Positions 1 through 26,565 of a DNA stretch of 32,000 nt are shown in pieces. Each line of letters starts with the position of its first letter. Positions within the stretch are counted from its first letter, which is position 1. Under the pieces are notes generated by a model. The model worked only from the letters and a program-made list of their open reading frames with translations. It searched no databases and was not told the DNA's origin. Source of the stretch: Candidatus Saccharimonadota bacterium (GTDB lineage Bacteria > Patescibacteriota > Gracilibacteria > Absconditabacterales > Absconditicoccaceae); assembly GCA_000503875.1 (NCBI GenBank), contig CP006913.1, positions 570,001-602,000 of the forward strand, read 5' to 3'. The position numbers were made by a program, and so were the translations under genes.

Positions 1-3000
1 ATGTTGTTATAATAGCAGGTTCATAAGATACATATCAAGGAGTAGGAATATATCATCATGTATATTCTCCTATATATAATCAAGTTACATCATTTTGTAA
101 AGATGATACAAGACCAGTTCATGATATATAATTATAAATTACAGATTGAACTTGTCTATTACTATTTTTACCATAGATATATCCTGCAACTGGTGGATAA
201 AAATCAAGATCCTTTTGCGAATTACACAATCCATCAACATGTAAAAATAGCTCATCAGAAGAAAAAGGATTTACTGCATAATCGCAAGACATAGTAGGCC
301 CAGTAAGCAAAAGTATTCCTGTAGTTCGTCATAAATAGTTATACGTAGCTCATCCTGTTGCAAAATAACTTGCATTTGGAATTGAAATATTGCTTAAGCT
401 ACCGTTAGCATACATCTTTATAGTACCAAAATATTTAGTATAATGAGTATAGTATCTATTATCTACATATATTGCATTAATAGTATTATTATAACATTCC
501 AAATTATTTACAACATTATATTGTGACCTATTATTAAAACCAATTCAATACCCATTATTATATAATTGTGCATTATTTATAACTCAAGAATTACTACCAT
601 CTATATAAATTCCATTATTGGTATTATTAAATGATTGAATATTATTTAATGTAGTATAGTTAGAATTATATATCCTAATTCATCAATAAGAACCATTTAT
701 ACTATTTTGAAATAACTGTACATTATCCACAAAATTATAATGAGAAATATATATATGAATACCTTCTTGAGAATTATTATATGATTGACTATTAGAAATT
801 GTGGTATAATTTACACCATTATTAAAATAAATTCATCTATAATAATTATAGGTTTCAACATCATTAATAATACCAAAGCTAGATCAATTAATAAAAGAGA
901 TACCAGCTGATATTGGTGTATGAAATCAAGAAGAGCCATTAGATTTACCATCAAATTTAATTCCATCTATCAAAATATTGTTTAAATTATCAATAGATAA
1001 GGCTGAAGTCGATCAGGTAGTATTATAGAAAGTAACAAGTCCGGATCAAATCAAAGCAGTACAATGTCATAAAAAATTTATAACTCATGTATTTAAATAA
1101 TCTCCTGAAGATAATATATATAAGGTATTTCATTGTAAATTTTGAGGGACTGTTCCAAGTCATGGAGAAAGATATTTGAGCATCATTTTATTAATATCAC
1201 AACTATTCGCTAACCAATTATATCAAGAGAAATAATATTTCTGTATAATATCTTTTTCAGACTGAATGGTGACAGAATCCAAATATATTATCGTATTATT
1301 AAATGTTTTATATATCATACCTCCGGTAGATAAATAGAGGTTTATAGATTTTTCACCATATCATGGTGTTAAAGTAACATTAAAAGTTCCAGTACCATTT
1401 AATATTCAATTCAAAGATCCTCACACAATATCACCTGAAATAGTATATGAACCGGTAAACGCTAAAACGACAACCAATTCCAAGTTTCTTGTTGTTGTAT
1501 ATGTGTCACTATTGATAAAAAAGTCCGCTCACGGAAGAATACTAGTTGGTTCTGCAATAAATTTAGTAGAATCAAAATCTAAAGAAGATAAAACCAAGTT
1601 AGTAGTTCACGAGTACATTACCGGTTGAATTTGTTTCGAAATAGATCATCAATAAATATTAGTTCAAGTTAATGATATATTACTTCTATATCATCTATAA
1701 TCACAATTAGATATTAAATTCAAAAAAGAATTTTGATTTCGATCCAAAATATTAACAGCTAATCAACAATTCATCTTTCATGATCAGGCTATAATTTCTC
1801 AAACATTTCGTCATAATCAAAGATTTTCTAATCATCATGAGATGAAAGATGATGTATTATCTAACTTTACATTACCATAGCTATTATTGAAAAAGCTATT
1901 TTTACCATAAAATTTTGATCCTGTCGAAAAAGTACTAGAAATAGCATATCACATATTATTATATATATTTACATTATTTATTATTGTTCAAGTAGAACGA
2001 TCGAGACTAATACCATTATTTTGATTATTGAAAATATGTGCATTATTAACAACGGTATTTACTGCATAACCAATATTAAAAGACATATACGTTGGATATG
2101 AAACATCTCAATTACCATAAATAAGGACATTATTTAATGTAGTATAATGTGAATTATATATTCTATTCATTCTATTATTATACAGATCAATATTATTAAA
2201 TGTATTATTATCAGCCATATAAACCTCTAATCAATAATTAGAATTATTATATAATTGCAAATTATTTATAGAATTATTTGAAGCACTATTATCTAGATTC
2301 AATCAATTCGTACCATCATACGATTGAATATTATTCAATATATTATTAGAAAAATAAGCCAATCTACCTCATTGTGAATTTCCATATAATTTAAGAGTAT
2401 CTAATGTGTTATATTTTGCATAAAATATATAAATAGCATAATTTGCGTTGGTTACTTCAATATTATGAAGAGTATTGTTTTTTGACACATTATTATTATC
2501 TGTTCCAGCAAGATATAAAGAATAGTAATCTTTGGAATGAGATCATCACAATCCATTATCAGTTCAATTTATATAAATACTATCAAGTATATTATTCGAT
2601 GCAAGCTTTCCATAAAAGACTCAAGAATTTGAAAAATAAGAAGAAGTAAAAAATTTAGCCATACCATTTCTAGCAATTATTGCATTACATTTATTAATGG
2701 TTATTTCAGAATCAGTAATATAATCTCCCGGATTAAGAACATATATAGTATATGGAGTTATAATAGACGGCAATACATTGGTACCAGGAGAAACTTGTTT
2801 GATAAGAGCATTTTCCGAACTACAGGCATTGGTCTGCCAATATTTTGTATACGCTGTTTTATCTGCTGAATTGGTTCCATATAATGCAGCATGAATATCA
2901 CAATTATTTGGGTTTTGACTCCAAAATGATGCGTCTAGGAATTTATCATTATCCCAAGATATAGTATATTGTCATTCACAACTAGTACAAGTAGTATCAG

Positions 3001-6000
3001 TATTCTCTGCTATTTTATTGATTTCACCAATATATAAATTTCATGAATAAGAAATAGATGATCAGGTAAGTAATGATCAAGAATATTGTACAGGAGCAAG
3101 CTGTTTTGGTAAAGATATTCCATAAACATAAGATATCAATTCACCTGTCGTTGGTTTCCAAGTAGCTATTTGTCACCTAGAATTACAATAATCATACACT
3201 CAGGTATTAGTAAGTAATCAGTTAGAAAGATTAAATGGATTAGCAATATTTCCACAACGAAAACATTCCCCATTTTCCACCATTCATCATGTTCGTCATA
3301 TATTAGTATAGACACTGGAAGTTCCTCCTGTCAAAAAAGTAATAATTCAATCATCATCATTAGCATACAATTTTAATGTTCCATAATATGTATTTCACGT
3401 AGATACAGAAAAAGATACTCATAAATTATTGTTTAATAGACTTACATGATTTAAAACATTATAATTTGAAGAATTAAAATACAGTCACTGTTGATTATTA
3501 TATATTTGAGCATTATTTATTATAGTACCTGACGAAGAAATCAGAGATAATCAATAAGTTGTATTATTATATAATTGAGAATTATTTACAACATTATAAT
3601 TTGAAGAAGAATAAGCTATTCAAGCTTGAAGATTATTATATGATTGAATATTATTCAATGTATTATATTGAGAATTAGAATATATATATATTCAATGAAT
3701 ACTATTATTATATGTTTGAATATTGTTTAATATATTATTAGAAGAAGCTCTTAAATAAATTCCATAGCTTTTATTGTCTGAAGTTTGAATATTGTCGAGT
3801 ATATTATTATTAGAACTATCTAAATATATTCAATAACAATTAGTGGAAGTATTCTTACATTTACTCGTTTGAATATTTCTTAGTGTATTAAAGTGAGAAG
3901 AAGAAAGTGATATGTTTGTATCATTATTAAATGAAAATTGTGCATTATTTAACATATTGTTTGAAGCACTTTGAATCTGTATTGCAGTACTCGTATTATT
4001 ATAAAATTGCAAATCATCTAAAATATTTCGATTTCCCATTAAATACATTCCATAGACATTATTATAGGATTGAACAGCGTGTACTGTATTATTTGATGCG
4101 TTTAAATAGATACCATAACTATTCGCCGCATGAGATCATCATTGTCCATCACCTGTTCCGTTAAAAGAAATATTTTCAAAAATAGTATTCTTTTTGGCGT
4201 TAACAAAAAACAATCAATTACCTAGTTGAGTATTTGAATAAAATGTTCATGAATCGTTTTTAACGATAACTGCATTACAGGTATTTGGATTAATTGTTCA
4301 ATTAGTTATATAAGTACCAGGATCCAAAACATATATTGTATTAGATACTAATTGATTTGGTAATATATTAGTTCCAGGAGATACCGTTGAAACTCTCATA
4401 TTTTCCACATCACAAATACTTGGATTTGACCAGTTTATGGTATACGCTGTTTTGTCCTCACCATATATTCCCGTACCATATAATGCTGATATAATATCAC
4501 ATGTGTTCGGCGTTTGAGACCAGAATCAGCTATTTATATAGACGTCATTATTCCAAATAGCACTATAGTTTGATATACAATTATTACAGGTGGTGTTATT
4601 ATCTTCTCCGATTTTATCAACTTCACCAATATATAAATTTCAAGAATAAGATAAATTAGAAATAACTGGATTGGCTCATGAATATTGCACGGGAACTACT
4701 TGTTTTGGCACATTTGTTCAATAGATATAAGTAATAGATTCTCCCATTGCTGGTTTCCATCCTATTATTTTACCCTTACTATTACAAGATCGATAAATTC
4801 CTGTATTCGTTAATAGTCCAGATCCAATATTAATCGGATTAGTGATATCTGCACAACGAAAACAAGTATTTATACCTATAGTTCCTGTTGTCCATCCAAA
4901 AGCACTATAATCATTTAATCATGCGGCGATTTTTCATCAACTATTTTGTCGATCAGCATCATTTTCATAAAGTTTTAATAATCCATAATAACTACCTGTC
5001 GACGTTCAAACAAAAGATATTCATGTAGTATTATTTAATATACTAACCTGATTAAAAATAGTATTTGTAGCATTACTTAAACCTATTCAAGCGCCATTAT
5101 TATTATATGATTGAATGTTATTAAGGATAGTGTTTGACGATGCTATTTGTAATCAATCTTGAGCATTATTATAGCTCTGTATATTATTTAAACTATTATT
5201 AGAAGCGGATATATATATTCCATAGTTATTATTATCATATGATTGAATATTATTCATGACATTGTTTAATGCACCAATTTGTATTCCATAACCAGTATTA
5301 TTATATGATTGTATATTATCCAATGTAGTAGAATAAGAATTAGATCACAAATAAACTCAGACACTAGTATTGTTATAGGTCTTTATAGTATTTAATATAT
5401 TTCAACTTGAAGAAGTATTAATAAATATTCAGTTACTACTATTATAAGCATTTACGTTACGTAATATGTTATAATTAGAACTGGAAAGGAGATAGATTGA
5501 ATGATTACTATTATTATAAGAATCTATAGTGTCAAGAATATTATTTGATGATGAATTTAAGTAGATTCCATATTGGTTTTTATAAGACTGAATAGCATAT
5601 AAAGAATTGTTTGATGATGAATTTAAATAAATCGAAGCCGTGCTGGCATTATACGATTCAATAGCATGCAATGCATTATTTGGCGATGAAACAAAAAATA
5701 TTCCATATCCATTCGCTGTATGAGATCATCATAGTCCATTTCCTGTGGCACTTATATGTATATTATCAAAAATATTATTCTTTTTTGTATTAACATAAAA
5801 CATTCCATTGGCTAGTGGTCAAGTAGAATAGAAAACTCAAGTTCAGTTTTTAGTAACGATTGCATTACATTTTTCTGTATTAATGGTTCCCGTTGTAATA
5901 TAATTCCCTGGCTCCAAAAGGTATATTGTATGCGATGATAATTGATTCGGCAAAGTCCCTGTACCGGGAGAAATAGTAATGACTCTTATATTTTCCGTAT

Positions 6001-8332
6001 TACAAAGATTACCATTTTGAACTCCTGATCGATTAGAACTATACATCGTTCTATCTTCTCCATAACGTCATGTACCATATAATGCTGCCACCATATCACA
6101 ACTATTTGGATTTTGATCCCAAAATGCTCATGTTATAAAATTAGAATTATCCCAATTTACTGTATATTTATTAAAACAATCATTGCATGTCATATCTGTA
6201 TTTTCTTCTATTTTATTTATTTCTCCTATATACAAACTTCATGAATAATAAGAGTTTGATCAAGTAAGCTGAGACAATATATAGAAAACAGGTTGTATCT
6301 GTTTAGGAACATTTATACCATAAATATAAGAAAGACTATTGGGTGATGATGTCCATCATCATATCTTTCATCTACTATTACAAGACCGATATATACCAGT
6401 ATTTGTTAGCGTTCATGAAGCTATATCGACTGGATTGGTAATATTAGCACAACGAAAACATCCACTATCAATTTCTATAGATCCTCATGTCCATCACAAA
6501 AAAGAAATATCAGCAAGATTCCCTGTAATCAAACCAGTAAGTATTCCATCTATATTTTGATCATTTTCAGAAAAAATAAGTGTATCATAATATTTATTAT
6601 TGGTCAGTGTTCAACCAAGAGATAAACCCGTTTGATTATTTTTAATAGATACTCTGTTTAATATCGTACCTGAAGTTGAGTTAAGTATTATTCAATATAA
6701 CGCATTATTATAACTTTGTGCATTATTTATTACATTATAATGAGAGTTATTAAAGATATAAATTCCATAACTTGAATTATTATACGATTGAATATTATTT
6801 AACGAATTATAACTAGAAGTTGTTTGAATAACAATTCCATTATCTGAATTGTTATACGATTGAATATTATTTAACGAATTATAATTAGATGTAGAAAATA
6901 GATATATTCAATATGCATTATTATAACTTTGAATATTATTTAATATATTATTAGAAGAAGTCTGAAGTTGAATACCATAATTAGTATTATTATAACTCTG
7001 AATAGTATCCAATGTTATAGAATTAGAAGTAGTATTTAAATAAATTCCCTTATTATTATTAAGTAATTGAATATCATGTATAGTACTATTTACTATAGAT
7101 TGAAAATATATTCAGTTTGCATTTTTTGTATGAGATCATCACCATCCATTTCAAGATCAATTAACACTAATTCCATCTATTATGATATTATTTTTCGTAG
7201 TAGCATAAAACATTCACTGAGTAGCGGTACTCAATTGTACTGATGAATAGAAATTGATATTTCATGTACCACCAATTACTGCAGAGCATCAATTCATAGC
7301 AATAGCTCCTGTTGTAATATAATTTCCTGATCATAAAATATAAATAGTATTTGCTGCTAGAGCAATAGGTAGAGATCATGTTCCTTCAGTAAGATATACA
7401 ACAGACATATTTCCCGTAATACATGTGACTCCAGTTCGATTTCTTGTATATGCAGTCCTTTCTATTCATCAACTTCCATCTCCATATAACGCTCTTATCA
7501 CATCTTGATTTGTTGGATTATTATTCCAGAAATCATCTGTTATAAAATTGTCATTGTCCCATTGGATTGATCCTACAGTAAACAAGGTAAAGTGATTTGT
7601 AGTAAATACTACATAGGAACTATTATCGATTTCTTGAACCATAGTTTGTGTATGAAGTTTCCATTCTTTTCCATTTTCTGATGAATAGATATTAACTTTT
7701 TCTCCTTGATTATATCATGGAGCTGGCATTCTAATTGTTACATATTCATCTTGTCCTTTCTCATTTTTAAAGAACAAAGATTCTTGATCTGATCATACTT
7801 CAATAAGAGAAACAGCTGATTTATTATCTAATTTATATTGTTTAGGGTCGATAAAAGTTGGAACTTTTATTTCCTTAGTATAAAAGGTATTTTTTTTAGT
7901 TTTAATAGCAATTCATGCTGGAATTTCCACTTGAGCAACTTTATTATTCAAGGTGTTTTTTGAAATAAGAACTGTTTGAACAAGAATTTTTCCGTTTTTA
8001 GAAAGAGAAATATTTTTATCAGTTATATTCTTAGTTTCAGATGAAATATTAGTATCAAATACATTATTGGTAACAGATACTGTTTTATCGTCCAACAATT
8101 CTGATGAAGATGAATCAACAGTAGTTGGTTTCGAATTAGAAATAATCACTGGAGTGAGATCTATTACTCAGGTATTTTCTTTTATATCCTGTTTATAAAT
8201 AGGTTCTGGAATTATAGGAGAATTTAATTCTTCATTTTTTTCTCAAAAGAAAAAATAAGCAACAGAAAGAATTATAGATAAAAATAGAATTATTAAGAAA
8301 TACATAGCTCCCTTTCTATATTTTTTTTTCAT
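1..8332 (-). CDS. Giant cell-surface protein (putative adhesin). The N-terminal 2,777 codons are visible and the C-terminus runs off the left edge. It has an N-terminal membrane anchor/signal, then at least five tandem modules of a Cys-rich linker domain plus right-handed parallel beta-helix (PbH1-type) repeats.
   Basis: The minus-strand frame with codon first bases at coordinates = 1 mod 3 has no TAA/TAG from 8332 down to 2 (checked line by line); only TGA interrupts it. Track fragments 7913..8149, 5843..6046, 5429..5671, 3830..4048 and 119..310 all lie in this frame. ATG at 8332 gives MKKKYRKGAMYFLIILFLSIILSVAYFFF (hydrophobic anchor); an alternative in-frame ATG is at 8305. There are many 22-24 aa turns of the type S-x-N-N-I-L-N-N-I-Q-S-Y-N-N-x-x-Y-G-I-Y-L. 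Each helix starts with P-G-x-Y-I-T...C-N-A-I/V, as in pectate-lyase-fold proteins. Confidence 0.85.
1670..6460 (-). repeat. Three tandem, clearly paralogous ~1.6 kb (about 532 aa) coding modules inside the giant gene. More diverged copies flank them at about 6600..7560 and 1..1670.
   Basis: The conserved C-F-R-C anchor (plus-strand acaacgaaaaca) sits at 6449..6460, 4853..4864 and 3254..3265, giving periods of 1,596 and 1,599 bp. The blocks L-Y-I-G-E-I/V, F-W-x-Q-N-P-N-x-C-D, A-L-Y-G and P-G-x-Y-I-T recur in the same order in each module. Confidence 0.8.
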
Positions 8333-8699: not shown

Positions 8700-9641
8700 T
8701 TAATCGATATTTTCTATTAAGATATCTTTCATTTTTTCATATATTTCTTTCACATCTTCTGGTGATTCATAATTAGGAAATAATGTCTGTCCCAAAGCAA
8801 CTTTTACATCAAAAGAATCAGCTAAAGCAACATTATTTGCAATCATTTTTTCGATTTGATCAGCTGTATATCAATTAGTTATAAGTACCTCACTAATCTC
8901 CTCTTCTGTCATAATATGAAAATTTCATACAGGTTGTCTCCTATCCATTTCATATATTTTTTTCCCATCTTTTACAGCTAATGCTACTTCCCAAGCTTCT
9001 TTATCAGATTTTTTTATATAATGATAATTTGTATTAACTACACAAGGTACACCAAGCTCCTGACACAAAGAAAATATATAAGTATTTATACGTTCTAACT
9101 CTGAATTTTCACTATGAAGTTGTGCTATAATTTCTCCATACACTGCATATTCACCAAGAACAGATTGCAATAAACGAATGATTTCACTAATTTTTTCACG
9201 AGATTCATCACGTAAAATCATTTTTCCTATCCATGATTGGTTACCACCAAATAAACAAACAACTCCATCAAAAAAAGAACGAATAGCTCAAAGATCAACT
9301 TTAGGTTTTCCTTTAACTCAAATAGTATTAGCATAAGAAGTAAGTTCCAGAAGAGATGAATATCATTTTGTTGTTTTAGCAAGAAAGACTATATTGCCAA
9401 CTTGATCAATAGGATAGATAGAAGTTACATCCAAAACAAATCCAAGTTCAACTCAAAGAATAGGTTTAATTCATTCATCTTTACAAGCTCACAAAAACTT
9501 AATAGCACCAAACATACCATTATAATCAGTGATTGCTATTGCTGACATTCCAAGTTCTTTGGCTCTAGCAGCAATTTTTGCTGGTTTACCAATGGCTTCG
9601 AGAAATGAAAACGTGCTATGTCCATGAAGATGAATAAACAT
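8700..9641 (-). CDS. dnaE: DNA polymerase III alpha subunit, N-terminal PHP domain only (313 aa). It is truncated relative to full-length DnaE of about 1,100+ aa, so it is a fragment or a split gene.
   Basis: The table-25 translation starts MFIHLHGHSTFSFLEAIGKPAKIAARAKELGMSAIAITDYNGMFGAIKFLGACKDEGIKPILGVELG, a typical DnaE PHP N-terminus. Similarity continues to ...LGQTLFPNYESPEDVKEIYEKMKDILIENID, then TAA at 8700..8702. The palm/fingers regions are absent and nothing downstream (8333..8699) is coding. No in-frame TAA/TAG; the track ORF 8925..9221 is in frame. Confidence 0.75.
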
Positions 9642-9663: not shown

Positions 9664-11205
<1,542 letters not shown>

Positions 11206-11376: not shown

Positions 11377-13899
11377 ATGTTAGATATTATAGCAATTTCA
11401 TATAAAAACATATGACCATTCAAAGGAGATCCAATTTCTTTGTTTTTTCTACAAGGAAAATATCTCATCAAAGCACCTATAGGAACTGGTAAAAGTTTTC
11501 TATTTTTTGATTGACCAATTTATTGATTATACAAATACAATACAAGAAATCTTTTAAACAACACTTCTTCAGAAGGACAAATCAAAATATTGTTTACATT
11601 CGAAAATGAAACTCGACTAATTATTAGACATATTACCAAAGCAAAAATCAAAGAATCATGCACATCAACCCTCTATAAAGTACAAAATTATGAAATAATA
11701 CCAGAAGAAATAATCAAAAAAAATGAAGATATAGAAGTCTATATCAAAAAATCTGGCGCTATTTTGGAAAAAATAGAATTTAAGAACGAAACAGATCTTC
11801 AACAAACATTTCTTTCTTTTTTGCCTCCCAAAGAAGTTTTTGTAAATACCGTATTTTTGATGCAAGATTCAGACAATATTTTTGAATTACTACCAAGTGA
11901 AAGGCTTACTGTGCTCAAAAATGTATTCTGACTCCTAGGAATCGATGAAGCCAAAGAAATAATCGCAGAAAAGAAAAAAGAAATCAGTTATAAACTCAAA
12001 AATTATTCAGATACCAGCAAATATGATGAAAAAACACAGTTTCTTATCAAGAAACTTTTCCAAAACCATCAACAATTACAAAAAGAACCAATAGAAGAAA
12101 TCAAAGAATTGATTGATAAAAAGAATAAAAGTTTACAGGAATTAGAGCTTATTCAAGAAAAAGTTACTATACAAGATTTGGACATAAGTAATTTTTGAGC
12201 AGATATAAACCTAGAAATAGATATAATAATTCAAAAAGAAAAAGACAAGCATAAAAAAATTCATAATCAGCTAGAGAATATCCAAGAATCAATTAAAACA
12301 GTAAAACAAAAGCTAGACACTAAGAGACAAAATTTATTTTCTATTCAGAAAAACAGTCAAGAAGCTGAAGAAAATATCAAAAGCATTGAAAATAATAATT
12401 TTGAAATTATAAAAAAACAAGTAGAAGAGGATCAAGAACTATTACATCAAAAAGACAGTAACCTCCCCTATCAACATATCTCTCTATTTTTAGATAACTG
12501 TAGACTAAATACAGAACTAGAAGATTTTAGTAAACTCAAAGAAATTCAAGGGATAGAAAGCGTATATAGCATTATCAAACAACTTATAGAAAAAGGGAAA
12601 TCTCTTCAAGAAAAAATCAAAAATAATCAGCTTCTTATACAAAATAAACAATTAGAGCAAAAATCAGAACAAGAAAGATATATTCAATGAGAAAAAACAT
12701 TATTAGATCAACAAGGAGAATTAGAAAAACAACTTTTAGAAACAGAAAATCATCTAAAAACATTTGAAAATAATATAGAACAACAAGCTACTTTTTCATG
12801 TGAAAAGATACAGACAAATTGCCCATTCATCAAAATAATCAACAAAAAAACATTTGATCAACTTGAAGAACAAAAAAAAACTTTTGTAAATAAAAAAAAT
12901 GATCTCGAAAAAGCAATTTGAAATAAAAAAGAACAAAGAGAAAATATAAAAAAACAACAAGCTGAAATAGGCACCAAAGAAGTTGAACTCCTTGTACAAC
13001 AATATCAAGAAAACATATTACTTCAAGAAAAAGCAACCACAACTATCAAAGAATTTCTCAATAATATAGAACGAAAAAACATAGAAACAGACTACCAATC
13101 ATACATAACAATTAAAAAGGAAAAAATAGCAAAAGAACTACAACTCAAAGAAGCAGAAAATCTGCAAAAGAAAAAAGAAGAATATATACAACATATAGAA
13201 AAAAACAAAGAAATCGAAAAACGTATCAAACAAGAAATACAAGAGAGTGAAAATGAAATACAAAGCTTTGAAAATAATAAAAAAACAATTGAAGAACAAA
13301 TTCAGAATATTAATTATGAAAAAATACTACAAGCTGAAGAATATAACAATCAATGTATCACTATCCAACGCGATATTGCGAATATGATTAATGAGTTCAA
13401 AACTCTCCAAAGAGAAACAGAACTTCTCAAAAAACAAGAAAAACAAATAGGCAATCTATACAACATTTTTTCAAAAGAACTACTTCTTTTGGTATTACAA
13501 GATCACTTACCTATCCTAAATGATATAATAAATAATTATTTATCACAGATAGTTGAATATCAGATATCACTTAAATTAAATAAAACAAACAGTGACAAAT
13601 TAGAGTTAGAAGCCAATATTATTGATAAAGAGGGCGAAAGAGAAATCAAAAGTCTTAGTTGATGACAAAAAATTATTTTAAAACTTATTTGGATGCTTTC
13701 TATATCTTCATATATGAGATCACCAATATTATTTTTGGATGAAACTATAAATAACTTAGATACAGAGACTGTAAGTAAAGTTGCTGATATGTTGGAAGAT
13801 TTTGTAAAACAAAGAAATATAAAATTTTACACAGTTACTCATAATCAACAAATCCAAGATATGCAAATACGAGATAAAGTCTTGGAAATAACAAGATAA
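11377..13899 (+). CDS. SbcC/Rad50-family SMC-like ATPase (840 aa) with a long central coiled coil
   Basis: N-terminus MLDIIAISYKNIGPFKGDPISLFFLQGKYLIKAPIGTGKSFLFFDGPIYGLYK (Walker A G-T-G-K-S). About 550 aa of K/E/Q-rich heptad-like sequence follows. The C-terminus carries the ABC signature S-L-S-G-G-Q, with both Gly encoded by TGA TGA at 13660..13665, and Walker B ILFLDE. All 20-codon lines from 11881 to 13384 were checked and have no TAA/TAG. Confidence 0.85.
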
Positions 13900-13910
13900 A
13901 TATCATAGAC

Positions 13911-13938
13911 TTGAAATTTAGATAATTTTTAGTATCAT
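13911..13938 (+). promoter_or_regulatory. Candidate promoter for the transporter gene (TTGAAA, 16-nt spacer, TATCAT)
   Basis: ttgaaa at 13911..13916 and tatcat at 13933..13938, 34 bp upstream of the ATG at 13972. Confidence 0.3.
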
Positions 13939-13971
13939 CCCACTCCGTTACTATTTATTTAAACCAAAAGG

Positions 13972-15129
13972 ATGAAGAAATATAAAAATTTAATTCTTTT
14001 TCTAGTAATTACTTTCTTACGAAGTATCTTTTTGGCAATGGCCAAAATTTTCTTACGATCTGCACTCAAAGAAGATAATAGGACATTGGAGGAAATTGCT
14101 GGATATATCAGTTTATGAGCAACAATATCATATTTTATAGGTGGGGCGTTAAATTATACTTTTCGTAAAAAACCTATTGTGATTGTTTCATGAATAGTCG
14201 TTATTATATGCTTGATTTATGGATATATGACAGATTATTTTCCACTCAAAAATTTTGCATTTATTATTTCTATTATGTGATTTTTTTATGGATTACGACT
14301 TACCGTAAAAGGAATTCTTACCACTGTAGAAATCATGGAATCATGATTGGGTGAAACAAAAATCAATGCTATCACAAATATAGTTATATTCCTATGATTA
14401 TTAACAGGTTCTTATTGGTGATTTGATATATACGATCGTCTACAAGGCGTTGGTGTTATTTGACTTATTTGAACAGTTGCGTTAGCAACAATATTGATTC
14501 TTTTTACCAAATATGATATAAATTTCAAAAAACATACATTACATAGCGCAATAACAAAGAATATTCCAAACATTTTCTGATCTATTAAAAAATACTTTAG
14601 TTATCTTATTCCAATAGGAGTTTTACGAGCAATTTCTACTGCTGTAGGACAAAAAATGTTGGAAATAGGAATAGATATTATGAATAAAACACCAACAAAG
14701 GGAATTATAGTAATTGTTGTTTCTATGGTATGAGCAATAGTAGGACATATCATTTCTACTCCAATAATCAAAAGAAAAAGAGTTCTTTCTACATTATTAA
14801 CTATATTATTAGCTATTAGTATAATGTTTTTCCCCAATTTCTTAGCACAAAAAGATACATTTTTATTTATGATGTGATATAGTGCATATTTATGAGTTAT
14901 ATTCGGTGTTATCGTAAACTTAATAGAAGGAAGATTTTATCATCAAATAGGTGAAGACAATAGAAAAGAATTCTGATCTGCAGCTTATGGAATTATCACG
15001 AGTATTATTATCTTTCTTATTATGATTATAGGAAATAATGTCACTAAAAAGATTGGAATAAATGCAAGCTTTATCTTTTATTGAATAACAGTTGCTGCAA
15101 TTATCCCTTTTATAAGAAGAGTTGAATAA
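13972..15129 (+). CDS. Polytopic integral membrane protein, MFS-like transporter (385 aa; family uncertain)
   Basis: Continuous table-25 ORF (checked codon by codon) made of roughly 10-12 hydrophobic segments separated by short K/R-rich loops, e.g. NLILFLVITFL.., IVIVSGIVVIICLIYGY.., GIIVIVVSMVGAIVGHIIS.., ITSIIIFLIMIIG. The opposite-strand track ORFs 14601..14837 and 14920..15177 are shadows. Confidence 0.75.
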
Positions 15130-17226: not shown

Positions 17227-18702
17227 TTAATTTTTTGTTATTTCATAGCCATCTTTGTTATCTTTTACATTCCATCAGAGCTCAGTTATCTTATTCCTAA
17301 GTTCATCAGCCAATGCATAATTTTTATCTTGCTTAGCTTGAATTCTTTGATCAGCAAGAGCAGTTATTTCGGCAGGAATATCAAGTTTTATTTCTTCAAT
17401 AAGATCAAATAAACCAACTTTTAAAAAACGTTTTTCTAATCGATATAATAAATTAATAATTTCTTCATTTATATCACTAATATAAGTATTAATTACAGCT
17501 ATTACTTTTGGTGTATTTATATCATCACAAATCGCATCCAAAATTTCTTTATGAAATTTTCTTGCTTGATCAGTTTTTAGATCTTTTCAAAGCTCAATAA
17601 AAGATCAATCTATAGTAATATTTTCAAAATTTAATTTTCTTATCTGTACTTTTTTTTTAAGATTATATCTACTTTGTTTGGCTACATCCATACTATTTCG
17701 AGTAAAATCGAAAAAACTACGATAATGAGTTGTAAAAAAGAAATATCTAATATCCAAATAATCATATCATTTATCCAAAACTTCATAAGGAGAAACTATA
17801 TTACCATCAGATTTTGACATTTTTTTACCATTCATATTCACAAACTGATGATGAATTCGGTATTTTACCCATGGATGAACATCAAAAGCACATTCAGATT
17901 GTGCAATTTCATTTGTATGATGAATAGGAATTAAATCATATCATCCATGATGAATATCAAATTGGTTTCATAAATATTTACTAGACATTGCACTACACTC
18001 AGCATGCCAACCTGGAAATCAAATTCATCGAGGACTTTCTCGTTCCATATCTCTCTTACCACTACCTACATGAAATTTCCACAAGGCAAAATCAGTAAGA
18101 TTTTTTTTTCATCACATATCAACTCTCTCTCATCATTGAATTCCCTCTAAATGTTTTTTATAATTTAAACCAAGTAGTTTACCATAATCACTAATTTTAC
18201 TGGTATCCATATACACTCCATCACCATCAATAATATATGTATATCATTTCTCTTCCAACATTTTAACAAGGTCTATCTGTTCTTGAATATATTCTGTAGC
18301 CCTAGGCATAACATCAAATTCATCTATATTCAATCATTTAAAAAAATCTCTAAAAATTTGTTCATATTTTTTTGCAACATCTCGAGCAGATATTCATTCT
18401 TTTTTTGCAGCCTTTTCCATTTTTTCATCACCATCATCACTATCTCAAGCCAAATGACCAACATCAGTAAAATTACTCATAGATATTACTTTATATCAAA
18501 GAATATTTTTTATTACATTTCTGATTAAGTCAGCCGTAAAAGCAGCTCTTACATTACCAAAATGAGGCATACCATAAACCGTAGGTCCACAACTATAAAA
18601 ACCCACAAAATCTTTTTTTGGTCAATGATAATTAGGATCTTCCATCAAGGGTACAAATTCTTCTTTTTGACGAGTAAGAGTGTTATAAAGATGCAGTTTC
18701 AT
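17227..18702 (-). CDS. cysS: Cysteinyl-tRNA synthetase (491 aa)
   Basis: MKLHLYNTLTRQKEEFVP; CGPTVYGMPHFGNVRAA (HIGH-like); ..ESP-x-GIGFPGWHAECSAM; FDIHHGGYDLIPIHHTNEIAQS; GKKMSKSDGN. No in-frame TAA/TAG between 18702 and 17230 (checked). Track ORFs 17275..17541 and 18622..18816 are in frame. The start is placed at the conserved MKLHLYNT rather than at the upstream extension to 18816. Confidence 0.95.
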
Positions 18703-18820: not shown

Positions 18821-20113
18821 ATGAATACACCAAAGCTTTCAAATTACTTTTCACAGAAATCTCCATCAGCAATTAGAATGGCACAAATGGAATTTGCCAA
18901 AAGAAATGATGGCACAAAAGCAATCAATGTGTCTATTGGAAATGTTTCGTTACCCATGCATCCAGCGATGCAAAAAAGAATGTTTGAATTAAATAATCCA
19001 GATAGTCCTCTAAAAGATTGAGTAGTAAAATACACACAAACAGTTGGGAATCAAGAGACAATTGACGCATTTTTGAATATCGTGAAATCCAGTTGATTCC
19101 CAACAGAAAATCTTTTTTGTCAGATCACCGATGGAGGAAGCCAAGCTATGGAATTAGTCCTTCTTGGAGTGAGTGATGCCAATGACAGACCGATCTTATT
19201 GATAGATCCAGCCTATACTAATTATATGAGTTTTGCTCAAAGAGTAGGAAGAAAAACCATCACTATTACGAGAAACCTACAAGATGATGGAACCTTTACC
19301 TTACCAAGCAAAGAAATAATAGAAGAAACCATAACCCAATATAATCCATCAGCTATTGTGGTTATCCCCTATGATAATCCTACGGGACAATATTACACTC
19401 AGGAAGATATGATAACAATTGCTAAACTTTCCGTAGAACATAATATGCGAATAATTAGCGATGAGGCCTATAGAGAATTACAATATCATCACCAAAAATC
19501 AACAAGCATTCGAGGTATAGACAATACTCTAGTTCCAGGTATTGAAGGAAGAAGAATCAGCATAGAAAGTGCTTCAAAAGTACGAAACGCCTGTTGATTA
19601 AGAATAGGAGCAATCATCACGGACAATGCAGAATTTCATCAACAAGCAGTAGCAGAAAACACAACGGCTCTTTGTTCAAGCACTATTGGACAATACATTT
19701 TCGGATCATTAGCTCATCTCAATAAAGAAGAACTTCAAGCTCGATACGAACAACAAAGAACCTATTATGGAAGTATGCTCAATACGTTAACTTCGGCGTT
19801 TAAAGAGGTATTACCAGGGATTATTGTTTCTAGTCCAGACGCTTCTATCTACTCCGTAATTGATGTAAAACATATTGCAAAGCCAGATTTTGATGCTAAA
19901 ACTTTCGTACTTTTTTGTGCACAACAAGGATATACTCTGATAGATAACCAAAAATATACAGTGCTCACCTCTCCTATGAGTGGATTCTACAACAACAAAG
20001 AAAACCCAGGGAAAACCCAAATGAGAATTTCTTTTGTAGAATCTCCTGAACAGATGAAATTAGTTCCTTACATTTTCGCAGAACTTTTTAAACAATACGA
20101 GAACACAAGATAA
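18821..20113 (+). CDS. Fold-type I (class I/II) PLP-dependent aminotransferase (430 aa); substrate not assignable from sequence alone
   Basis: Track ORFs 18737..19021, 19148..19597 and 19775..20113 share one frame and are joined only by TGA. Motifs: LLIDPAYTNY, VVIPYDNPTGQ, IISDEAYREL, and the PLP-lysine block S-A-S-K-V-[CGA]-N-A-C-G-L-R-I-G, where the conserved Gly is TGA at 19595..19597. Confidence 0.9.
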
Positions 20114-20260: not shown

Positions 20261-22696
20261 ATGTTCTGAATTCTTGGGAACAATGCAAGGAATCTCCTCT
20301 ATATCAAAAAGTTTAACGATAAAAAAGCTATTCGTCTGGCGAACAACAAACTCGAGACAAAAAACTTCTTATCAGAAAGAGGAATCCCTTTCGCCAAAAC
20401 TTATGGAATCATATCCAATCGTAATGAACTTTATGACTTTGATTTTTCTTATTTACCAAAAAAAACATTTGTCATAAAACCAAATCAATGAAGTAAATGA
20501 GAATGAATTTTGATAGTAAAAAATATCACCAAAGAAGAACAACCAATACACAAGAAAAAAAATACAATAATAGATAATTTGGAAAAACGACGAGCGAAAA
20601 TAATACCCTATAAAACAATTCCAATCAATAGAAAAGAACTTTATCATGTAGGAGAAAAATCAATCAATGACGAAACATTTAGAAGATATTTGCTTGATAT
20701 CATCGATTGAAAATATTCTATGACAATGGGAAATGACAAAGTAATTATAGAAGAAAAACTAATTCCAGGAGAATTATTTAAAGAATTTTGTGAACGATGA
20801 TTAGCAGATATTAGAATCATTGTTTTCAATCTTGTTCCTATTGCTACAATGATTAGAGTGCCTACAAAATATTCCAACGGAAAGGCAAATTTAGCACAAT
20901 GATGATTAGGGCTTGGAATAGAAGTATGAACAGGAAAAATAACATCTATGCTTCGAAAAAACAAAGTATATACACGTAAATTTCCCAAAGAGTTTGGTCA
21001 TTTTTTTGGAAAACAAATTCCTTATCGAAACGATATTTTATTCCTTTCATCAAAAGCTCAATATTATGTAAACCTTGGATATCTTGCTCTCGATCGAGTA
21101 ATAACAAATGAGGGACCAAAACTTTTGGAAATCAATGCAAGAGCCGGTTTAGAGGTACAAAAAGTAACAAACACTCCTCTAGAAAAAATATTAGAAAAGA
21201 TTGAAGATCTCAATATTCAAGATCCAGAAAAATGAGTAGAAATAGCAAAAACTTTGTTTAGCAAAGAATCTAATGATCTTATCAAACAACAAAAAATTCT
21301 TTATTTATCTCAATACGGGAAAGTTATTTTAAAAAATGATGATGATGAAACTATAGATGTTATCGTAGAAATTGATCTTAATAAGCAAAATAATTATGTA
21401 ACGCCAAGTATATATGATAAAATCAAACAAAAATCTGATTTTATTTTGGATATGTATGAAAACGACATAATTCTTAAAAAACCAAAACTTATTGCAAAAG
21501 AACAAATAAGTGAAAATAAAATTATATTAGGAAGAAAAACTGCAGAAAAATTTCTCATAAAACCTATTCACAAAACATTCGAAAAGATAGAAATTATCTC
21601 TTCTGATAAATTGCTTCCGCTGGAGACCAAAGAACTACATATCATCGATGAAAGATTAGAAAAGCTCTCCAAAAGATTAAACCTCTCAGCAAAACTCAGA
21701 CCAACAAACTATTTCAATGAACTTGATAATTTTATTACACGAAAAGGTAATTATAATCCTATTTTTCAATATAAACGACCAACTGAAGAAAAAATATTAG
21801 AAACAAAAAATGATTTAGAAAAACTTCAAGAAAAAACAAATAAATTAGAAAGTCCTATAAAAAAACTTTTTTTAGAAAAAGCAGATGAATTAACAAATAA
21901 ATTATTCTTACTACAATCTTATACAAAACAAAATTTTAAAAACATAGCAATATATAATGAGAAACTTTTTGGTTCATTTGATCAGGAACTTCTCAAAAAT
22001 TCAAAAGAAAAAGTGTTTTCACAAAAGGAAAATAATCAAGAAATATTGGGGGAACCATTGAAATTATCAGAAATAGAACAACTTATAGAACGCTATCTTG
22101 CTGAAAAAAAAATATATGGTGTTGATATCGTATTCAGTTATGATAATCTTTCTAGAATTTCTGTCATTATGGGAAAAGAAATCAGAATCAGTATTTCTAA
22201 ACATGGTATTTTTAGAGAAAAAGAAATTCTTTCAATTCTGGCTCATGAAATAGATACACACCTTGTAAGACATCTTAACGGATTAAAATCTTGACGAAAA
22301 ATATTTAAATCATGAACAGGATATTATCTAAAGGATGAAGAAGGTTTAGCTATATGGAATGCAAGTAAATTTTTGCCTGAAGAATATGAAAAAGACAGTA
22401 TATACAAAAAATATATTTTAATAAACGATTGAGAAAAAATGGATTTTAAAAAACTATGTGAAACAGCTAGATTCTATTATCCAGAAAGAAGTAATGAATG
22501 ATTATTTAAAACAGCTATTAGAATAAAGAGATGATTAATAGATTCTTCAAGAATTTGAAAAGGAACAAATGCAATTCAAAATAAAATATATTTAGAATGA
22601 TACGAAAAGATAAAAGAAATTTTCAAAAATTGAGGAGAAATCGATAGATTATACAAGGGGAAAATTAAAATAGAAGATTTAGATTTTATAAAATAA
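20261..22696 (+). CDS. Fusion protein (811 aa): N-terminal ATP-grasp amino-acid ligase (alpha-L-glutamate-ligase-related, sugar-transfer-associated type) plus C-terminal DUF1704/QEGLA-family (MATCAP-type) metallocarboxypeptidase
   Basis: Track ORFs 20510.., 20948.. and 21254..22294 share one frame with the ATG at 20261; only TGA intervenes. ATP-grasp blocks: FVIKPNQGSKGEGILIV (20477..20509; three Gly are TGA), GLADIRIIVF, VPTKYSNGKANLAQGGLGLGIEVGTGKI, GPKLLEINARAGLEVQ (21128..21154). DUF1704 blocks: KLRPTNYFNELDNF..NPIFQYKRP, H-E-I-D-T-H (HEXXXH, 22244..22261), E-E-G-L-A (22337..22351), RIKRGL..GKGTNAIQNKIYLEGY. Stop TAA at 22694..22696. Confidence 0.9.
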
Positions 22697-22705
22697 ATAT
22701 TTCCA

Positions 22706-23584
22706 ATGAAACTACTAAGATTATATGAATCTAGAGAAATAAGTAAAAAAAAAGAGAGATTTGATACAGAAGCAAAAATAATATGAGGCATAGAGACTTA
22801 TTTTATGCCATATTTAGATATATATTATGATGGGAAATTCAGAAACATTATAGATTGAAAAGAGATCGAAGATGCTGATATATACTGGATACCATCTACT
22901 GTAAAAAAATGAATTAGCATGAATTCTTGATTAATATATTATCTAGGAATATTAAAAAAGAAAAAGATAATGGATCCTTTTAAATATTATGGAATCCTTT
23001 GAGGAAAATTTCAACAAACATTGTTTTTTAATCATTATTGACACAAGACACCAAAAACATTTTTTTTCCAAATAACCCAAGAACATAAAAAATCCTATAT
23101 AGATATTATAGAAAAAAATTTCACTTATCCATTTTTAACCAAAGATTTATATTTGGAAAAAGGGAAATGAGTAATTCTTATTAAAGATAGAGAAGAATTA
23201 ATAAACAACATAAATAAATATACAGACCAAGGAATATTAATACAAGAATGTATAGAAAATACCTGAGAATATAGAATATTATGTGTTTGAAAAAAAATAA
23301 TAGGAAGCTTCAAAAGATATAATCCTAACCATTACAAAAACAATACATACAAATGAACACTCTTTGAAAAAGCAGAATTAACGAAAGAAACAAAAAAAGA
23401 AGTTCTGAAAATGGTGGCTAGATATGGCATAGAATTTGCTGGTATAGATCTCTTAATCGGTAAAGATTGAGAACTCTATTTTTTGGAAATAAATTCATGA
23501 CCTCTCTACAAAAGAGCCGAAGAAGTTTTGGAAATAAACGTAGTAAAAGAACTTTTATTGTATCTTAAAAAAGGTGGAAAATAA
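22706..23584 (+). CDS. RimK/GshB-like ATP-grasp ligase (292 aa)
   Basis: Continuous table-25 ORF (checked) starting 9 nt after the previous stop. Motifs: YPFLTKDLYLEKGKGVILIKD, GILIQECIENTGEYRILCVGKKIIGSFKRYNPNHYKNNTYKGTLFEKAEL, GIEFAGIDLLIGKDGELYFLEINSGP. These follow the RimK pattern (K-P..G-S-x-G-x-G-V, Q-E-F-I..D-x-R, R..F-x-x-N..G-G, G-x-D-L..E-x-N..P). Confidence 0.85.
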
Positions 23585-23605
23585 TATTTATATACTACCA
23601 TAATA

Positions 23606-24856
23606 ATGAAAAAGATTGCTGTAACATGAACTAAATGAAAAACAACAATAATAAGATTAATCAATTTTATTTTATTAGAATTATGAAATAAGACATTGTC
23701 TGTCGATTCAGATTGAGTATATATAAACTGAAAACAGAAATTAGACAAAAAAGATTCTATAAACATCTATTGATTACTACCCTGAAAATGCCCATGACGT
23801 TTCCTATATTTAGGATATGATTATAAGAATAAATATTGGAAAATAGATTATGCAGTATTAGAAACAATTATTGGCTGTTATGTTACCTGACTTTGATATA
23901 AAAAACACGATATATGAGTTTTTTCAAATGTATTTGAAGACCATATAGGAGGCCTATGCTCCGCAATCAAAACAAGAGAAGATTTAGCGTTAAGAAAATA
24001 CAGAATTATTTCAAAAATTAAAACAGGATGATATTTTGTATACAATATGGATGATCAGCTAATAGCAAACAATATGGATGATCATATATCAAATGAAATT
24101 AAAAAAATATGAGTAACAAAAGATTTAGAAAAATTTCAATGAAAAAAAACATGTATATTCATTTCAAAAAAAGAAGTTAAAATAAAAATTAGCAACAAAA
24201 TTATTAAATTTGATCTATCCAATAACAAGTTTTCTTTCTATTGAGAATATGAACCAGCATTATACAATATTGGTTTATCTATTTGATGATTATTAGGATT
24301 ATTAGGAGAAGAAATATTTATATCAAAACACAAACAAATAAAAGAAAGTATAGATAGATATACAACTGATATATTAGGAGGAAGAATGATCTTATTGGAA
24401 CAAAATGGCAGAAAAATTATATTGGATTATGCACATGAAAAACAGTCATTATCAGCAGTTCTAAAGCTAGCAAATACATTGAAAACAGGGAAATCTATAG
24501 GTGTTGTAAGACTATCTCCCGAAAGAGAAGATAAAATATATCATAACATAGGGAAAAGTATTGCAAGCCTTGCTGATGAATTTATTGTATACGATAAAAT
24601 TGATTGAATAGAAGACAAATCATATACAATAAATACAAAAGAAATAAAAAACAAGAAAAGAAACCCATGAGAAATAATGCATTTATTTGCTGAATGAATT
24701 AAAACAAAAAATAAAAAGGTACAAGAAATTATTTATCGAAAAGATGCAATAAAATATTGATTAAAAAACACTAAAAAAGGAGATGTAATAGTAATCATAG
24801 TAAAAAACAGCAAAGAAACAGGTGTTTTTATAAAAAAATACCTTAAGATAAAATAA
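23606..24856 (+). CDS. Mur-ligase-family protein resembling the M (Mur-ligase-like) domain of cyanophycin synthetase CphA (416 aa)
   Basis: P-loop I-A-V-T-G-T-K-G-K-T-T with Gly encoded by TGA at 23627..23629 and 23636..23638. LSVDSDGVYINGK (compare CphA T-T-D-G-I-Y-I). DYAVLETIIGCYVTGLGYKKHDIGVFSNVFEDHIGG (compare CphA A-V-L-E-T-A-R-G-G-I-L-R-x-G-L...N-I-x-x-D-H-L-G). ILDYAHEK (compare D-Y-A-H-N-P). The frame was checked; track ORF 24386..24607 is in frame. It starts 21 nt after the ATP-grasp gene. Confidence 0.85.
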
Positions 24857-24906
24857 GCTGATACAAAAGGAAGAAAACACAGAAGAAAATTCTTAATCAC
24901 TTTCCC

Positions 24907-24935
24907 TTGATTCCCCCACTCAAATCACTTAAATA
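24907..24935 (+). promoter_or_regulatory. Candidate promoter for the 7TM gene (TTGATT, 17-nt spacer, TAAATA)
   Basis: ttgatt at 24907..24912 and taaata at 24930..24935, in the 109-bp gap before the ATG at 24966. This is a weak -10 match. Confidence 0.25.
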
Positions 24936-24936
24936 T

Positions 24937-24960
24937 GAGGCAATTTATTTGCCTCTTTTC
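24937..24960 (+). terminator. Hairpin plus T-tract immediately upstream of the 7TM gene. It is either a terminator/attenuator for the ligase genes or a 5' leader hairpin.
   Basis: gaggcaa (24937..24943) / ttgcctc (24949..24955), 5-nt loop, then ttttcttctt running into the ATG at 24966. Confidence 0.4.
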
Positions 24961-24965
24961 TTCTT

Positions 24966-26492
24966 ATGAAAAAACTCTCATTACTCATAACAATACTTCT
25001 TTGACTTTTTGTTTTTCCAGCATTTGCTGAGGAACAAGCACACAATGCTGCATGATGTGAAAATAGGACATATGACATCAAGGGTTTATCTGATATCAAA
25101 AAAGGTCAAACTGCTGAATATAGTATGGTTTGGGCAAAAGATAAATATCTTTGACCTATAAGCTTTAACTCTATAAAATTCACTTTAAGCAAAAACAACA
25201 AGGTTATTTCAAAGAATAATTCTGATTTTTTCTCATTTACTCCTTCTGAATTAGGAAAATATACATTACAAGTAGAAGCAATCGATAACCAAAACTGTTA
25301 TAGTAAAATAAGCAAAACCATAACTACTCATGATAAAATCATTCTCTATATAGGGAAAGCTAGCGAAGATCTTCAAGTAGAATTCGATGATACTTTCAAA
25401 AAAAACAACACTCTTTTTAAGAAGATCATCATAAAAGAAAAAAAACTTTTTGGAGAAGATGAATTACTATGAGAACTCGCTGAAAATAGTAGTTATATTA
25501 AAAACAGTTCTATTATTATTATTAATATAAGCAATTTTGATAGTTTCTTTCAATTATTATGAAATATTAATAAGACAGAGACGCTCAACTTAAACAAAAA
25601 AGATATTTATCTTATAACAGATCTTAATAAATATTTTCTCAAAAGAATAGTTGCAAAATATCTCAATACCGTATGAATAGAAAAAATTTACACCGTAAGC
25701 GATAAAGATTTCTTTAGTGTTCTTTCAAAACTTTCTTTTAAAAAAGATTTACAAAACGATCCTACAATAACGACATTTTCATTATTATTTCAAGAAGCGC
25801 CCAAATATATTCTGATTTCTTATTTAATAGATAATTTAATTTACAATTGATTTCCTATTGATTTAATAGGTATATTACTAGTTTTATGTATAGCAACACT
25901 AGTCATAAGCATCTTTAGACAAGTTATTTGATTCTCTGTCTTTGGAATTTATAGTCCTCTTCTTTTTGGGCTTGCCATGGCAATTCTCAATATAAAATTA
26001 AGTCTTATCCTTTTAGCTATTGGAATTTTAGCCAAGGTCTTAACTCATCTTCTCAACAAAAAAATATATCTTCTTTTTAATACTAAATTATCTGTCTTAG
26101 TCGTTCTTTATTTTCTACTGACAATCATAGTTCTTGGGCTAGATAAAATTCTTCACACCAACATTATAAATCTGGATATATTCAATAATGGATTTATTAT
26201 TTTCCCTATTATGTTTATTATTATTGTTACTGATAAAGTATTCAACGAAGGATTTAAGGTATTTAGTCTAGGATGGTGGATTTCTTTTGGAGAATTTTTA
26301 ATTGTAAGTTTCTCTGTATATGGATTATTAAATCGATGATGGATGAAACATATATTATTATCATACCCAGAAAGTATTCTTATTGTTCTTTTGTTACATA
26401 TAATTATCGGTAGATTTACAGGTCTTCAATTATTAGAATATTTCCGTTTTATGCCTCTTATCAAAAAACATTTCGATAGTGAAGAAGAATAG
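24966..26492 (+). CDS. Membrane protein (508 aa): signal peptide, ~290-aa extracytoplasmic domain, and a C-terminal 7TM_transglut-type seven-helix module (the partner of RimK-related ATP-grasp ligases)
   Basis: MKKLSLLITILLGLFVFPAFA (signal). The C-terminal half is seven hydrophobic helices: FRQVIGFSVFGIYSPLLFGLAM..., IIFPIMFIIIVTDKV..., and the family-typical tail YPESILIVLLLHIIIGRFTGLQLLEYFRFMP (26409..26450; compare G-R-Y-T-G-Y-R-L-x-E-x-x-R-F). The frame was checked from 24966 to TAG at 26490..26492; track ORF 25977..26339 is in frame. Confidence 0.85.
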
Positions 26493-26565
26493 AAAAAGAT
26501 CTTGTAACATTTTTATATCAGATTCGTAGTATAGATATAATTCTTTACTTGTTAATACAAAAAAA

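Follow-up and report, generated by a model that had tools for sequence, protein, structure and literature searches.

CGA as a probable tryptophan codon in an SR1 (Absconditabacterales) genome, traced through CGA/TGG exchange between the modules of a giant surface protein

The DNA considered here is a stretch of 32,000 nucleotides (hereafter the window) from the genome of SR1 bacterium RAAC1_SR1_1, namely positions 570,001 to 602,000 of the forward strand of contig CP006913.1 in assembly GCA_000503875.1, and the question is how the codon CGA is read in its 14 genes, above all in the gene for a giant surface protein whose paralogous modules carry CGA and TGG at the same positions. Two of the encoded proteins match deposited records exactly when CGA is translated as arginine: the methionyl-tRNA synthetase (MetRS, 9664-11199) is NCBI protein P148_SR1C00001G0546 and an ATP-grasp protein (20261-22696) is P148_SR1C00001G0552, both of RAAC1_SR1_1. 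The nearest relatives of these two proteins are named Absconditabacteria or Absconditabacterales, and GTDB lists the source genome as s__UBA5124 sp000503875 in o__Absconditabacterales.

The G+C content of the window is 0.25-0.36. Under the standard bacterial code (table 11), almost no long open reading frames (ORFs) are found, only tiny ones. When stops are restricted to TAA and TAG, ORFs tile the window, and thus TGA is a sense codon. Its meaning can be read from the cysteinyl-tRNA synthetase (CysRS), at whose TGA sites glycine accounts for 727 of the 1,205 residues pooled from 76 standard-code orthologs, with 10 of the 18 sites having glycine in at least 54 of the 76. Judged from these alignments, UGA is glycine in the source organism, a meaning shared with NCBI table 25, the SR1/Gracilibacteria code (Campbell et al. 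2013 and Rinke et al. 2013, as cited in PMC8629427). Arginine codons in the window genes are dominated by AGA (153), with 13 AGG, 29 CGT, and three CGC, so that the CGN family is depressed. Across the 14 genes we counted 63 in-frame CGA, 47 TGG, and a single CGG, which amounts to 61.9 CGA and 46.2 TGG per 10,000 codons. Tryptophan would make up 1.09% of the encoded residues if CGA and CGG were counted as tryptophan, and 0.46% if they were not. Two genes are devoid of TGG altogether, encoding an aminotransferase (four CGA) and a SIMPL protein (two CGA).

The giant surface protein is encoded on the minus strand, and its frame (8332 to 1) is open only when TGA is taken as sense. It contains 121 TGA, nine CGA, one CGG, and 18 TGG codons. 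An N-terminal hydrophobic anchor is followed by five paralogous modules of approximately 470-570 residues each, which combine a Cys-containing linker with beta-helix-type repeats of about 22 residues (N-x-L-x-N-I-Q-S-Y-N-N is seen in the translation). The match to the Pfam NosD beta-helix family is weak, at 20.3 bits and under the curated cut-off of 23.6, and a right-handed parallel beta-helix of the NosD/pectin-lyase-like type is therefore a putative fold. The gene and the codons in question are as follows.

1 to 8332, minus strand: gene of the giant surface protein, starting with the ATG at 8330-8332 and spanning more than 2,777 codons, with its 3' end past window position 1
7436 to 7438, minus strand: CGA, linker column, module 1 (ERTAYTRN-CGA-TGVTC)
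6029 to 6031, minus strand: CGA, linker column, module 2 (DRTMYSSN-CGA-SGVQ)
4430 to 4432, minus strand: TGG, linker column, module 3 (DKTAYTIN-W-SNPSIC)
2837 to 2839, minus strand: TGG, linker column, module 4 (DKTAYTKY-W-QTNAC)
1214 to 1216, minus strand: TGG, linker column, degenerate module 5 (alignment column 45)
6491 to 6493, minus strand: TGG, G-[W/CGA]-T-x-G column, module 1 (alignment column 501)
4892 to 4894, minus strand: TGG, G-[W/CGA]-T-x-G column (alignment column 501)
3293 to 3295, minus strand: CGA, G-[W/CGA]-T-x-G column, module 3 (alignment column 501)
1808 to 1810, minus strand: CGA, G-[W/CGA]-T-x-G column (alignment column 501)
326 to 328, minus strand: CGA, G-[W/CGA]-T-x-G column (alignment column 501)
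6386 to 6388, minus strand: the only in-frame CGG of the window (GIY-CGG-SCNS), with partners CGA at 4790-4792, GAT at 3191, and TCT at 1709
4790 to 4792, minus strand: CGA paired with the CGG in the GIY-x-SCNS column
4028 to 4030, minus strand: CGA in a beta-helix repeat (MGN-CGA-NILDDL), in a weakly informative column

The five modules were aligned with MAFFT while CGA and CGG were masked as X, so that an assumed codon meaning could not steer the alignment. An earlier note on this DNA had proposed that four linker copies place CGA (twice) and TGG (twice) at one structural position. The four peptides are exact as it quoted them and share one column in the masked alignment, and its coordinates for CGA (7436, 6029, 4028, 4790), TGG (4430, 2837), and CGG (6386) are all correct. 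The codons sit on the minus strand, which that note left unstated, and the plus strand reads TCG, CCA, and CCG, respectively. With the addition of the degenerate fifth module, which had been overlooked, the linker column reads CGA, CGA, TGG, TGG, and TGG from module 1 to module 5. A second column of the same kind, also previously unlisted, lies just before a C-F-R-C motif, where G-[W/CGA]-T-x-G is written with TGG in two modules and CGA in three. In a homolog of the giant protein on a related contig (L083, approximately 30% identical), this column reads CGA, CGA, TGG, TGG. We take CGA and TGG to alternate in these columns because the two codons are synonymous. The aromatic slot that had been suggested for the CGA at 4028 is weaker than proposed, as its column is mixed (partners Tyr 9, Ser 10, Asn 10), and it was set aside as evidence. 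The giant protein with its putative beta-helix itself appears to occupy a variable island. It follows a PHP-domain gene on contigs L083, L084, and L087, and a UvrD helicase and housekeeping genes stand in its place on L081 and L085.

A second repetitive surface protein lies at the other end of the window.

27444 to 32000, plus strand: repetitive surface protein, continuing past the window edge; Ig-like and PKD domains; 16 CGA, nine TGG

Here the copies switch between TVT-W-IDKE and TVT-CGA-IDKE and between GAT-W-SDN and GAT-CGA-SDN, and the CGA codons at 28332, 28863, and 30405 pair with TGG. Paralogous positions in the two repetitive proteins were paired by cutting the queries into windows of 70 residues and searching them against database pieces of 200 residues, as whole-protein BLAST self-comparison returned the diagonal only. 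Among the 19 CGA or CGG sites with a paralogous partner, the partner is TGG at seven and an arginine codon at none. The 38 true arginine-codon sites with a partner behave in the opposite manner, as 22 pair with arginine codons and none with TGG. The difference in TGG pairing (Fisher p = 2e-4) means that CGA and TGG are paired among paralogs more often than by chance.

The same exchange is found between genomes. Nine syntenic contigs from different projects, with 52-94% protein identity to the window, were compared by aligning single-copy genes codon by codon with CGA and CGG masked. Of 38 window CGA sites, 20 are TGG and 33 are CGA or CGG in the relatives, and none meets an arginine codon. At 135 sites where the window has AGA, AGG, CGT, or CGC, TGG is never found, CGA or CGG is found once, and an arginine codon is found at 117 (Fisher p = 4e-16 for CGA versus arginine-codon sites). 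True arginine codons are exchanged with one another or with lysine and never with TGG. The earlier note had named exchange of CGA mainly with AGA, AGG, CGT, or AAA as the pattern that would refute its reading. In both paralogs and relatives, CGA was paired with no arginine codon, an outcome that favors tryptophan. These exchanges show CGA to behave as a synonym of TGG, and CGT, CGC, AGA, and AGG to behave otherwise.

Distant homologs that use the standard code allow the identity of the residue to be addressed outside the repetitive proteins. Other window genes with CGA include the following.

17227 to 18702, minus strand: CysRS gene; six CGA, at 18382, 18040, 18028, 17857, 17698, and 17440
9664 to 11199, minus strand: MetRS gene; five CGA, at 10966, 10708, 10459, 10144, and 9988
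18821 to 20113, plus strand: class I/II aminotransferase gene; four CGA, no TGG
20261 to 22696, plus strand: ATP-grasp/MATCAP (DUF1704) fusion gene; nine CGA, one TGG
26566 to 27327, plus strand: SIMPL protein gene; two CGA, no TGG

Of the six CGA sites in CysRS, five coincide with tryptophan columns of the 76 standard-code Patescibacteria orthologs (70/76, 76/76, 76/76, 69/69, and 50/74), and the sixth is variable. When CysRS with CGA masked as X was aligned with solved structures in the PDB, tryptophan was found in three of three at aa221 and aa225, which form the W-x-S-P-W-G motif, and W/F/W at aa282. At aa107, lysine stands in one of the three structures and tryptophan in 70 of the 76 orthologs. 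The contig scan that supplied the CysRS sequences covered relatives of at most 51% identity, the source genome not being among them, and the flanks of the 80 loci retrieved held almost no other homologs of window genes. CysRS also stands much further from the nine relatives, at 52-62% identity, than do the flanking genes (approximately 70-94%), and it is 491 residues long as compared with approximately 440-465, which suggests faster evolution or gene replacement.

MetRS, the aminotransferase, and the ATP-grasp protein provide further columns. At four of the five MetRS sites, the solved structures have F/V/F, Y/Y/Y, I/L/L, and I/V/A, and the fifth (aa247) is poorly aligned. Three of the four aminotransferase sites align with F/V/Y/Y, F/F/F, and F/Y/F in solved homologs, with the fourth being variable. 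Across the cleanly aligned sites in solved structures, CGA never falls on arginine or lysine except for the lysine at CysRS aa107. Relatives within the clade are informative in another way, as arginine is what their database records give for CGA and CGG. Across 120 MetRS proteins of the clade, W and R are mixed in the columns that the window writes with CGA or TGG; the invariant tryptophan of VWYDAL is written R in 51 of the 120, and 33-51 entries have R at each conserved tryptophan column. Columns in which the window has AGA contain 1119 R, 127 K, and no W. Likewise, in 120 relatives of the ATP-grasp/MATCAP protein, eight of the nine CGA columns hold W/R, aromatic, or hydrophobic residues. 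This gene also contains two adjacent CGA codons (20588-20593, plus strand, LEK-CGA-CGA-AKI), the first in a column of mostly K/R/Q and the second in one of I/F/V in the 120 relatives, and the first of the pair is the clearest CGA site of the window that is unlike a tryptophan position.

The proposal that CGA is read like TGG, as tryptophan, is thus borne out by the paralogs, the nine relatives, and the standard-code homologs. From these alignments we conclude with high confidence that the code of RAAC1_SR1_1 assigns UGA to glycine and CGA to tryptophan, with CGG very probably assigned to tryptophan as well.

Several points weigh against this conclusion. The window holds no tRNA gene or Rfam match, and no UCG or CCG anticodon was found in the 91 loci that were fetched, so the decoding step rests on a published inventory. 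The peptide patterns used to collect the 80 CysRS loci had W written at four of the six CGA positions, which introduces an ascertainment bias; site aa107 and the X-masked PDB alignments are free of it. The CGA at 20588-20590 (aa110 of the ATP-grasp/MATCAP protein) lies in a K/R/Q column of the 120 relatives. The sole exception among the 135 arginine-codon sites is found at 22484-22486 (plus strand, YYPE-R-SNEG), where the window has AGA, relative L089 has CGA, and three relatives have AAA. In the comparison with L081, CGA is paired with CAA twice and with AAA once. Finally, according to the authors of the published codon survey discussed below, nothing short of an experiment can establish how the codon is translated and rule out ambiguity (PMC8629427).

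It is conceivable that CGA has a dual meaning with a minor arginine reading, in which case CGA in basic or polar columns, such as that at 20588-20590 and those involved in the CAA, AAA, and AGA exchanges, would be tolerated or even exploited. We regard this as improbable, and such codons are most simply seen as tryptophan at unconstrained surface positions. A broader form of the same idea, in which competing tRNAs or a mischarged tRNA(UCG) would insert mostly tryptophan and sometimes arginine to give a statistical proteome, could draw on the minority of CGA sites in polar or basic contexts and on the fact that ambiguity is left possible in the published work (PMC8629427). However, CGA is used freely at invariant, structurally critical tryptophan positions of the essential CysRS and MetRS, it outnumbers TGG in the window so that a sizeable arginine fraction would be costly, and the genome is reported to have one tRNA(UCG) and no tRNA(ACG). 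Ambiguous decoding on this scale is, in our estimation, quite improbable.

The deposited annotation takes CGA for ordinary arginine, and table 25 likewise leaves CGA and CGG as arginine. The mixed columns would then reflect real Arg/Trp differences in fast-evolving surface modules, and the public protein records that translate CGA as R, together with the one CGA site in a K/R/Q column, are in line with this. The codon-pair counts contradict it. In paralogs and in the nine relatives, CGA is never paired with an arginine codon, and AGA, AGG, CGT, and CGC are paired with one another and never with TGG. Moreover, CGA occupies the invariant tryptophans of the CysRS W-x-S-P-W-G motif, and the 'R' of clade MetRS records falls in tryptophan columns (VWYDAL in particular), with no W in AGA columns. 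Ordinary arginine is thereby refuted on the counts, and we give it very little credence overall.

C-to-U editing of the first codon base, which would turn CGG into a UGG tryptophan codon in the mRNA, was rejected and has a negligible chance of being correct: an edited CGA would be UGA and hence glycine, yet CGA is paired with glycine codons in none of 85 ortholog pairs and with TGG instead, and 63 of the 64 cases are CGA rather than CGG. C-to-U editing of this kind is not known from bacteria. A sequencing or assembly error or a misalignment of repeats, which might be suspected because the giant protein is highly repetitive and because the slot at 4028 could be misaligned, is scarcely credible and was ruled out by independent assemblies, as the CGA/TGG exchange is also seen in single-copy housekeeping genes and across nine independently assembled metagenomic contigs.

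With CGA taken as tryptophan, the status of CGG can be considered separately. The earlier note had seen in the pairing of CGA (4790) with CGG (6386) a hint that the two codons are read alike. The window offers little on this point and this part of the hint is weak, since its only CGG lies in a non-conserved column, where the two remaining modules have Asp and Ser; in addition, CGG was called 'Arg' by Codetta in the sister species GCA_002414185.1 (PMC8629427). Both facts count against a tryptophan meaning for CGG. On the other side, columns from close relatives agree with the hint. Six of the seven CGG-containing columns are otherwise made up of CGA or TGG only, one is variable, and none has an arginine codon; at mfs aa109 and sbcC aa566, all three codons (CGA, CGG, and TGG) are present. 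These columns come from the relatives and not from GCA_000503875.1 or its sister GCA_002414185.1 themselves. We consider it likely that CGG is tryptophan in genus UBA5124 and that UGG has locally lost its place as the main tryptophan codon to CGA.

The reassignment itself is already known. A Codetta screen of more than 250,000 genomes assigned CGA and CGG of Absconditabacteria to tryptophan instead of arginine, besides UGA to glycine (Shulgina & Eddy, eLife 2021, PMC8629427), and row 10 of the Figure 4 source data gives UGA=Gly, CGA=Trp, and CGG='?' for GCA_000503875.1 (PMC8629427). The reassignment has been restated in a 2026 paper in Nucleic Acids Research (NAR). Our reading of CGA is therefore a correct independent rediscovery of a result published in 2021 for exactly this genome, and its value as a discovery is small. 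The published case agrees with ours in genome, codon, new meaning, low G+C content, AGA-dominated arginine usage, and rarity of CGG. There is no difference of kind between the two. The published case differs with regard to CGG, which was left '?' in this genome and called Arg in the sister, whereas six of seven CGG columns in the relatives used here contain CGA or TGG; these columns are a small piece of added evidence on a codon that Codetta did not call in RAAC1_SR1_1. It also differs in codon usage. Per 10,000 Pfam-aligned codons, the genome has 25.7 CGA, 1.6 CGG, and 57.9 UGG (PMC8629427), a CGA:UGG ratio of about 1:2 genome-wide, whereas the window genes reverse this order (63 CGA against 47 TGG). 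The published description of an early stage, at which the codon has not rebounded, may understate the use of CGA outside conserved domains.

The tRNA complement offers a means by which CGA could be decoded as tryptophan. For the SR1 clade, the decoders of CGA and CGG were reported to be tRNA(UCG) and tRNA(CCG) with identity features of the tryptophan and not the arginine type, as judged by G73 and no A20 (PMC8629427). Such Trp-type tRNAs were confirmed for the clade and not for RAAC1_SR1_1 individually (PMC8629427), for which the listed tRNA gene counts are ACG 0, GCG 1, UCG 1, CCG 1, and CCA 1 (PMC8629427). CGU and CGC remain arginine through tRNA-Arg(GCG). The Candidate Phyla Radiation is without tRNA(ACG) and inosine, and through wobble tRNA(UCG) reads CGA as well as CGG, so that the two codons switch meaning together (PMC8629427).

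As to origin, strong A+T pressure combined with the capture of UGA by glycine would have left tryptophan without an A-ending codon. TGG could then have passed through CGG to CGA by single synonymous steps; TGG and CGA are two substitutions apart, and CGG is the only synonymous intermediate because TGA would be glycine. A preference for A in the third position would have gathered the codons at CGA. The same preference, visible in AGA 153 versus AGG 13, would explain the 63 CGA against one CGG.

Known bacterial code changes resemble this one in part. In Anaerococcus and the RFN20 Bacilli (Onthovivens), CGG is reassigned to tryptophan, and in Peptacetobacter it is reassigned to glutamine (PMC8629427; PMC13092985). 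As in SR1, these are sense-codon reassignments away from arginine, to tryptophan in the first two, and occur in low-G+C bacteria with rare CGN codons. They lack tRNA(UCG), however, and only CGG is reassigned, with CGA kept as arginine by tRNA(ICG), whereas in SR1 the reassignment chiefly concerns CGA, and the gene inventory of the genome includes a tRNA(UCG). The table 4 change of UGA to tryptophan in Mycoplasmatales, Entomoplasmatales, and insect endosymbionts also supplies an A-ending tryptophan codon in an A+T-rich genome. Table 4 captures UGA for this role, whereas UGA of SR1 is already glycine and the A-ending tryptophan codon would be CGA. Table 25, by the alignments presented here, is wrong for the SR1 lineage in treating CGA as arginine.

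This last point has practical consequences. Public protein records of the clade still translate CGA and CGG as arginine, and the deposited SR1 proteins carry arginine where the cell almost certainly inserts tryptophan. In the deposited RAAC1_SR1_1 records, MetRS has five and the ATP-grasp protein nine probable W-to-R mistranslations, and such errors corrupt SR1 alignments, profile models, and structure predictions. The analysis also shows that a sense-codon reassignment can be recovered from raw sequence, with no database at hand, by comparing paralogs within it as an internal control.

Some features of the neighboring genes may be added. The region 20261-27327 (plus strand) is a conserved gene cluster that comprises the ATPgrasp_ST-MATCAP fusion (DUF1704, 'tyrosine/phenylalanine carboxypeptidase'), a RimK-type ATP-grasp protein, a Mur-ligase-like protein, a 7TM_transglut membrane protein, and the SIMPL protein, and it may be a peptide-ligation or peptide-modification system. 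The stand-alone PHP-domain gene at 8700-9641 (minus strand) encodes 313 residues, ends at TAA, and resembles the N-terminus of DNA polymerase III alpha. A separate PHP gene of 312-313 residues follows MetRS in seven related contigs, so that it is a small conserved gene in its own right rather than a disrupted dnaE. Finally, the AT skew is strongly positive (0.34) at 12001-14000, over the gene for an SbcC/Rad50-like ATPase (11377-13899), and the long coiled-coil part of this protein is very rich in Lys, Glu, and Gln.

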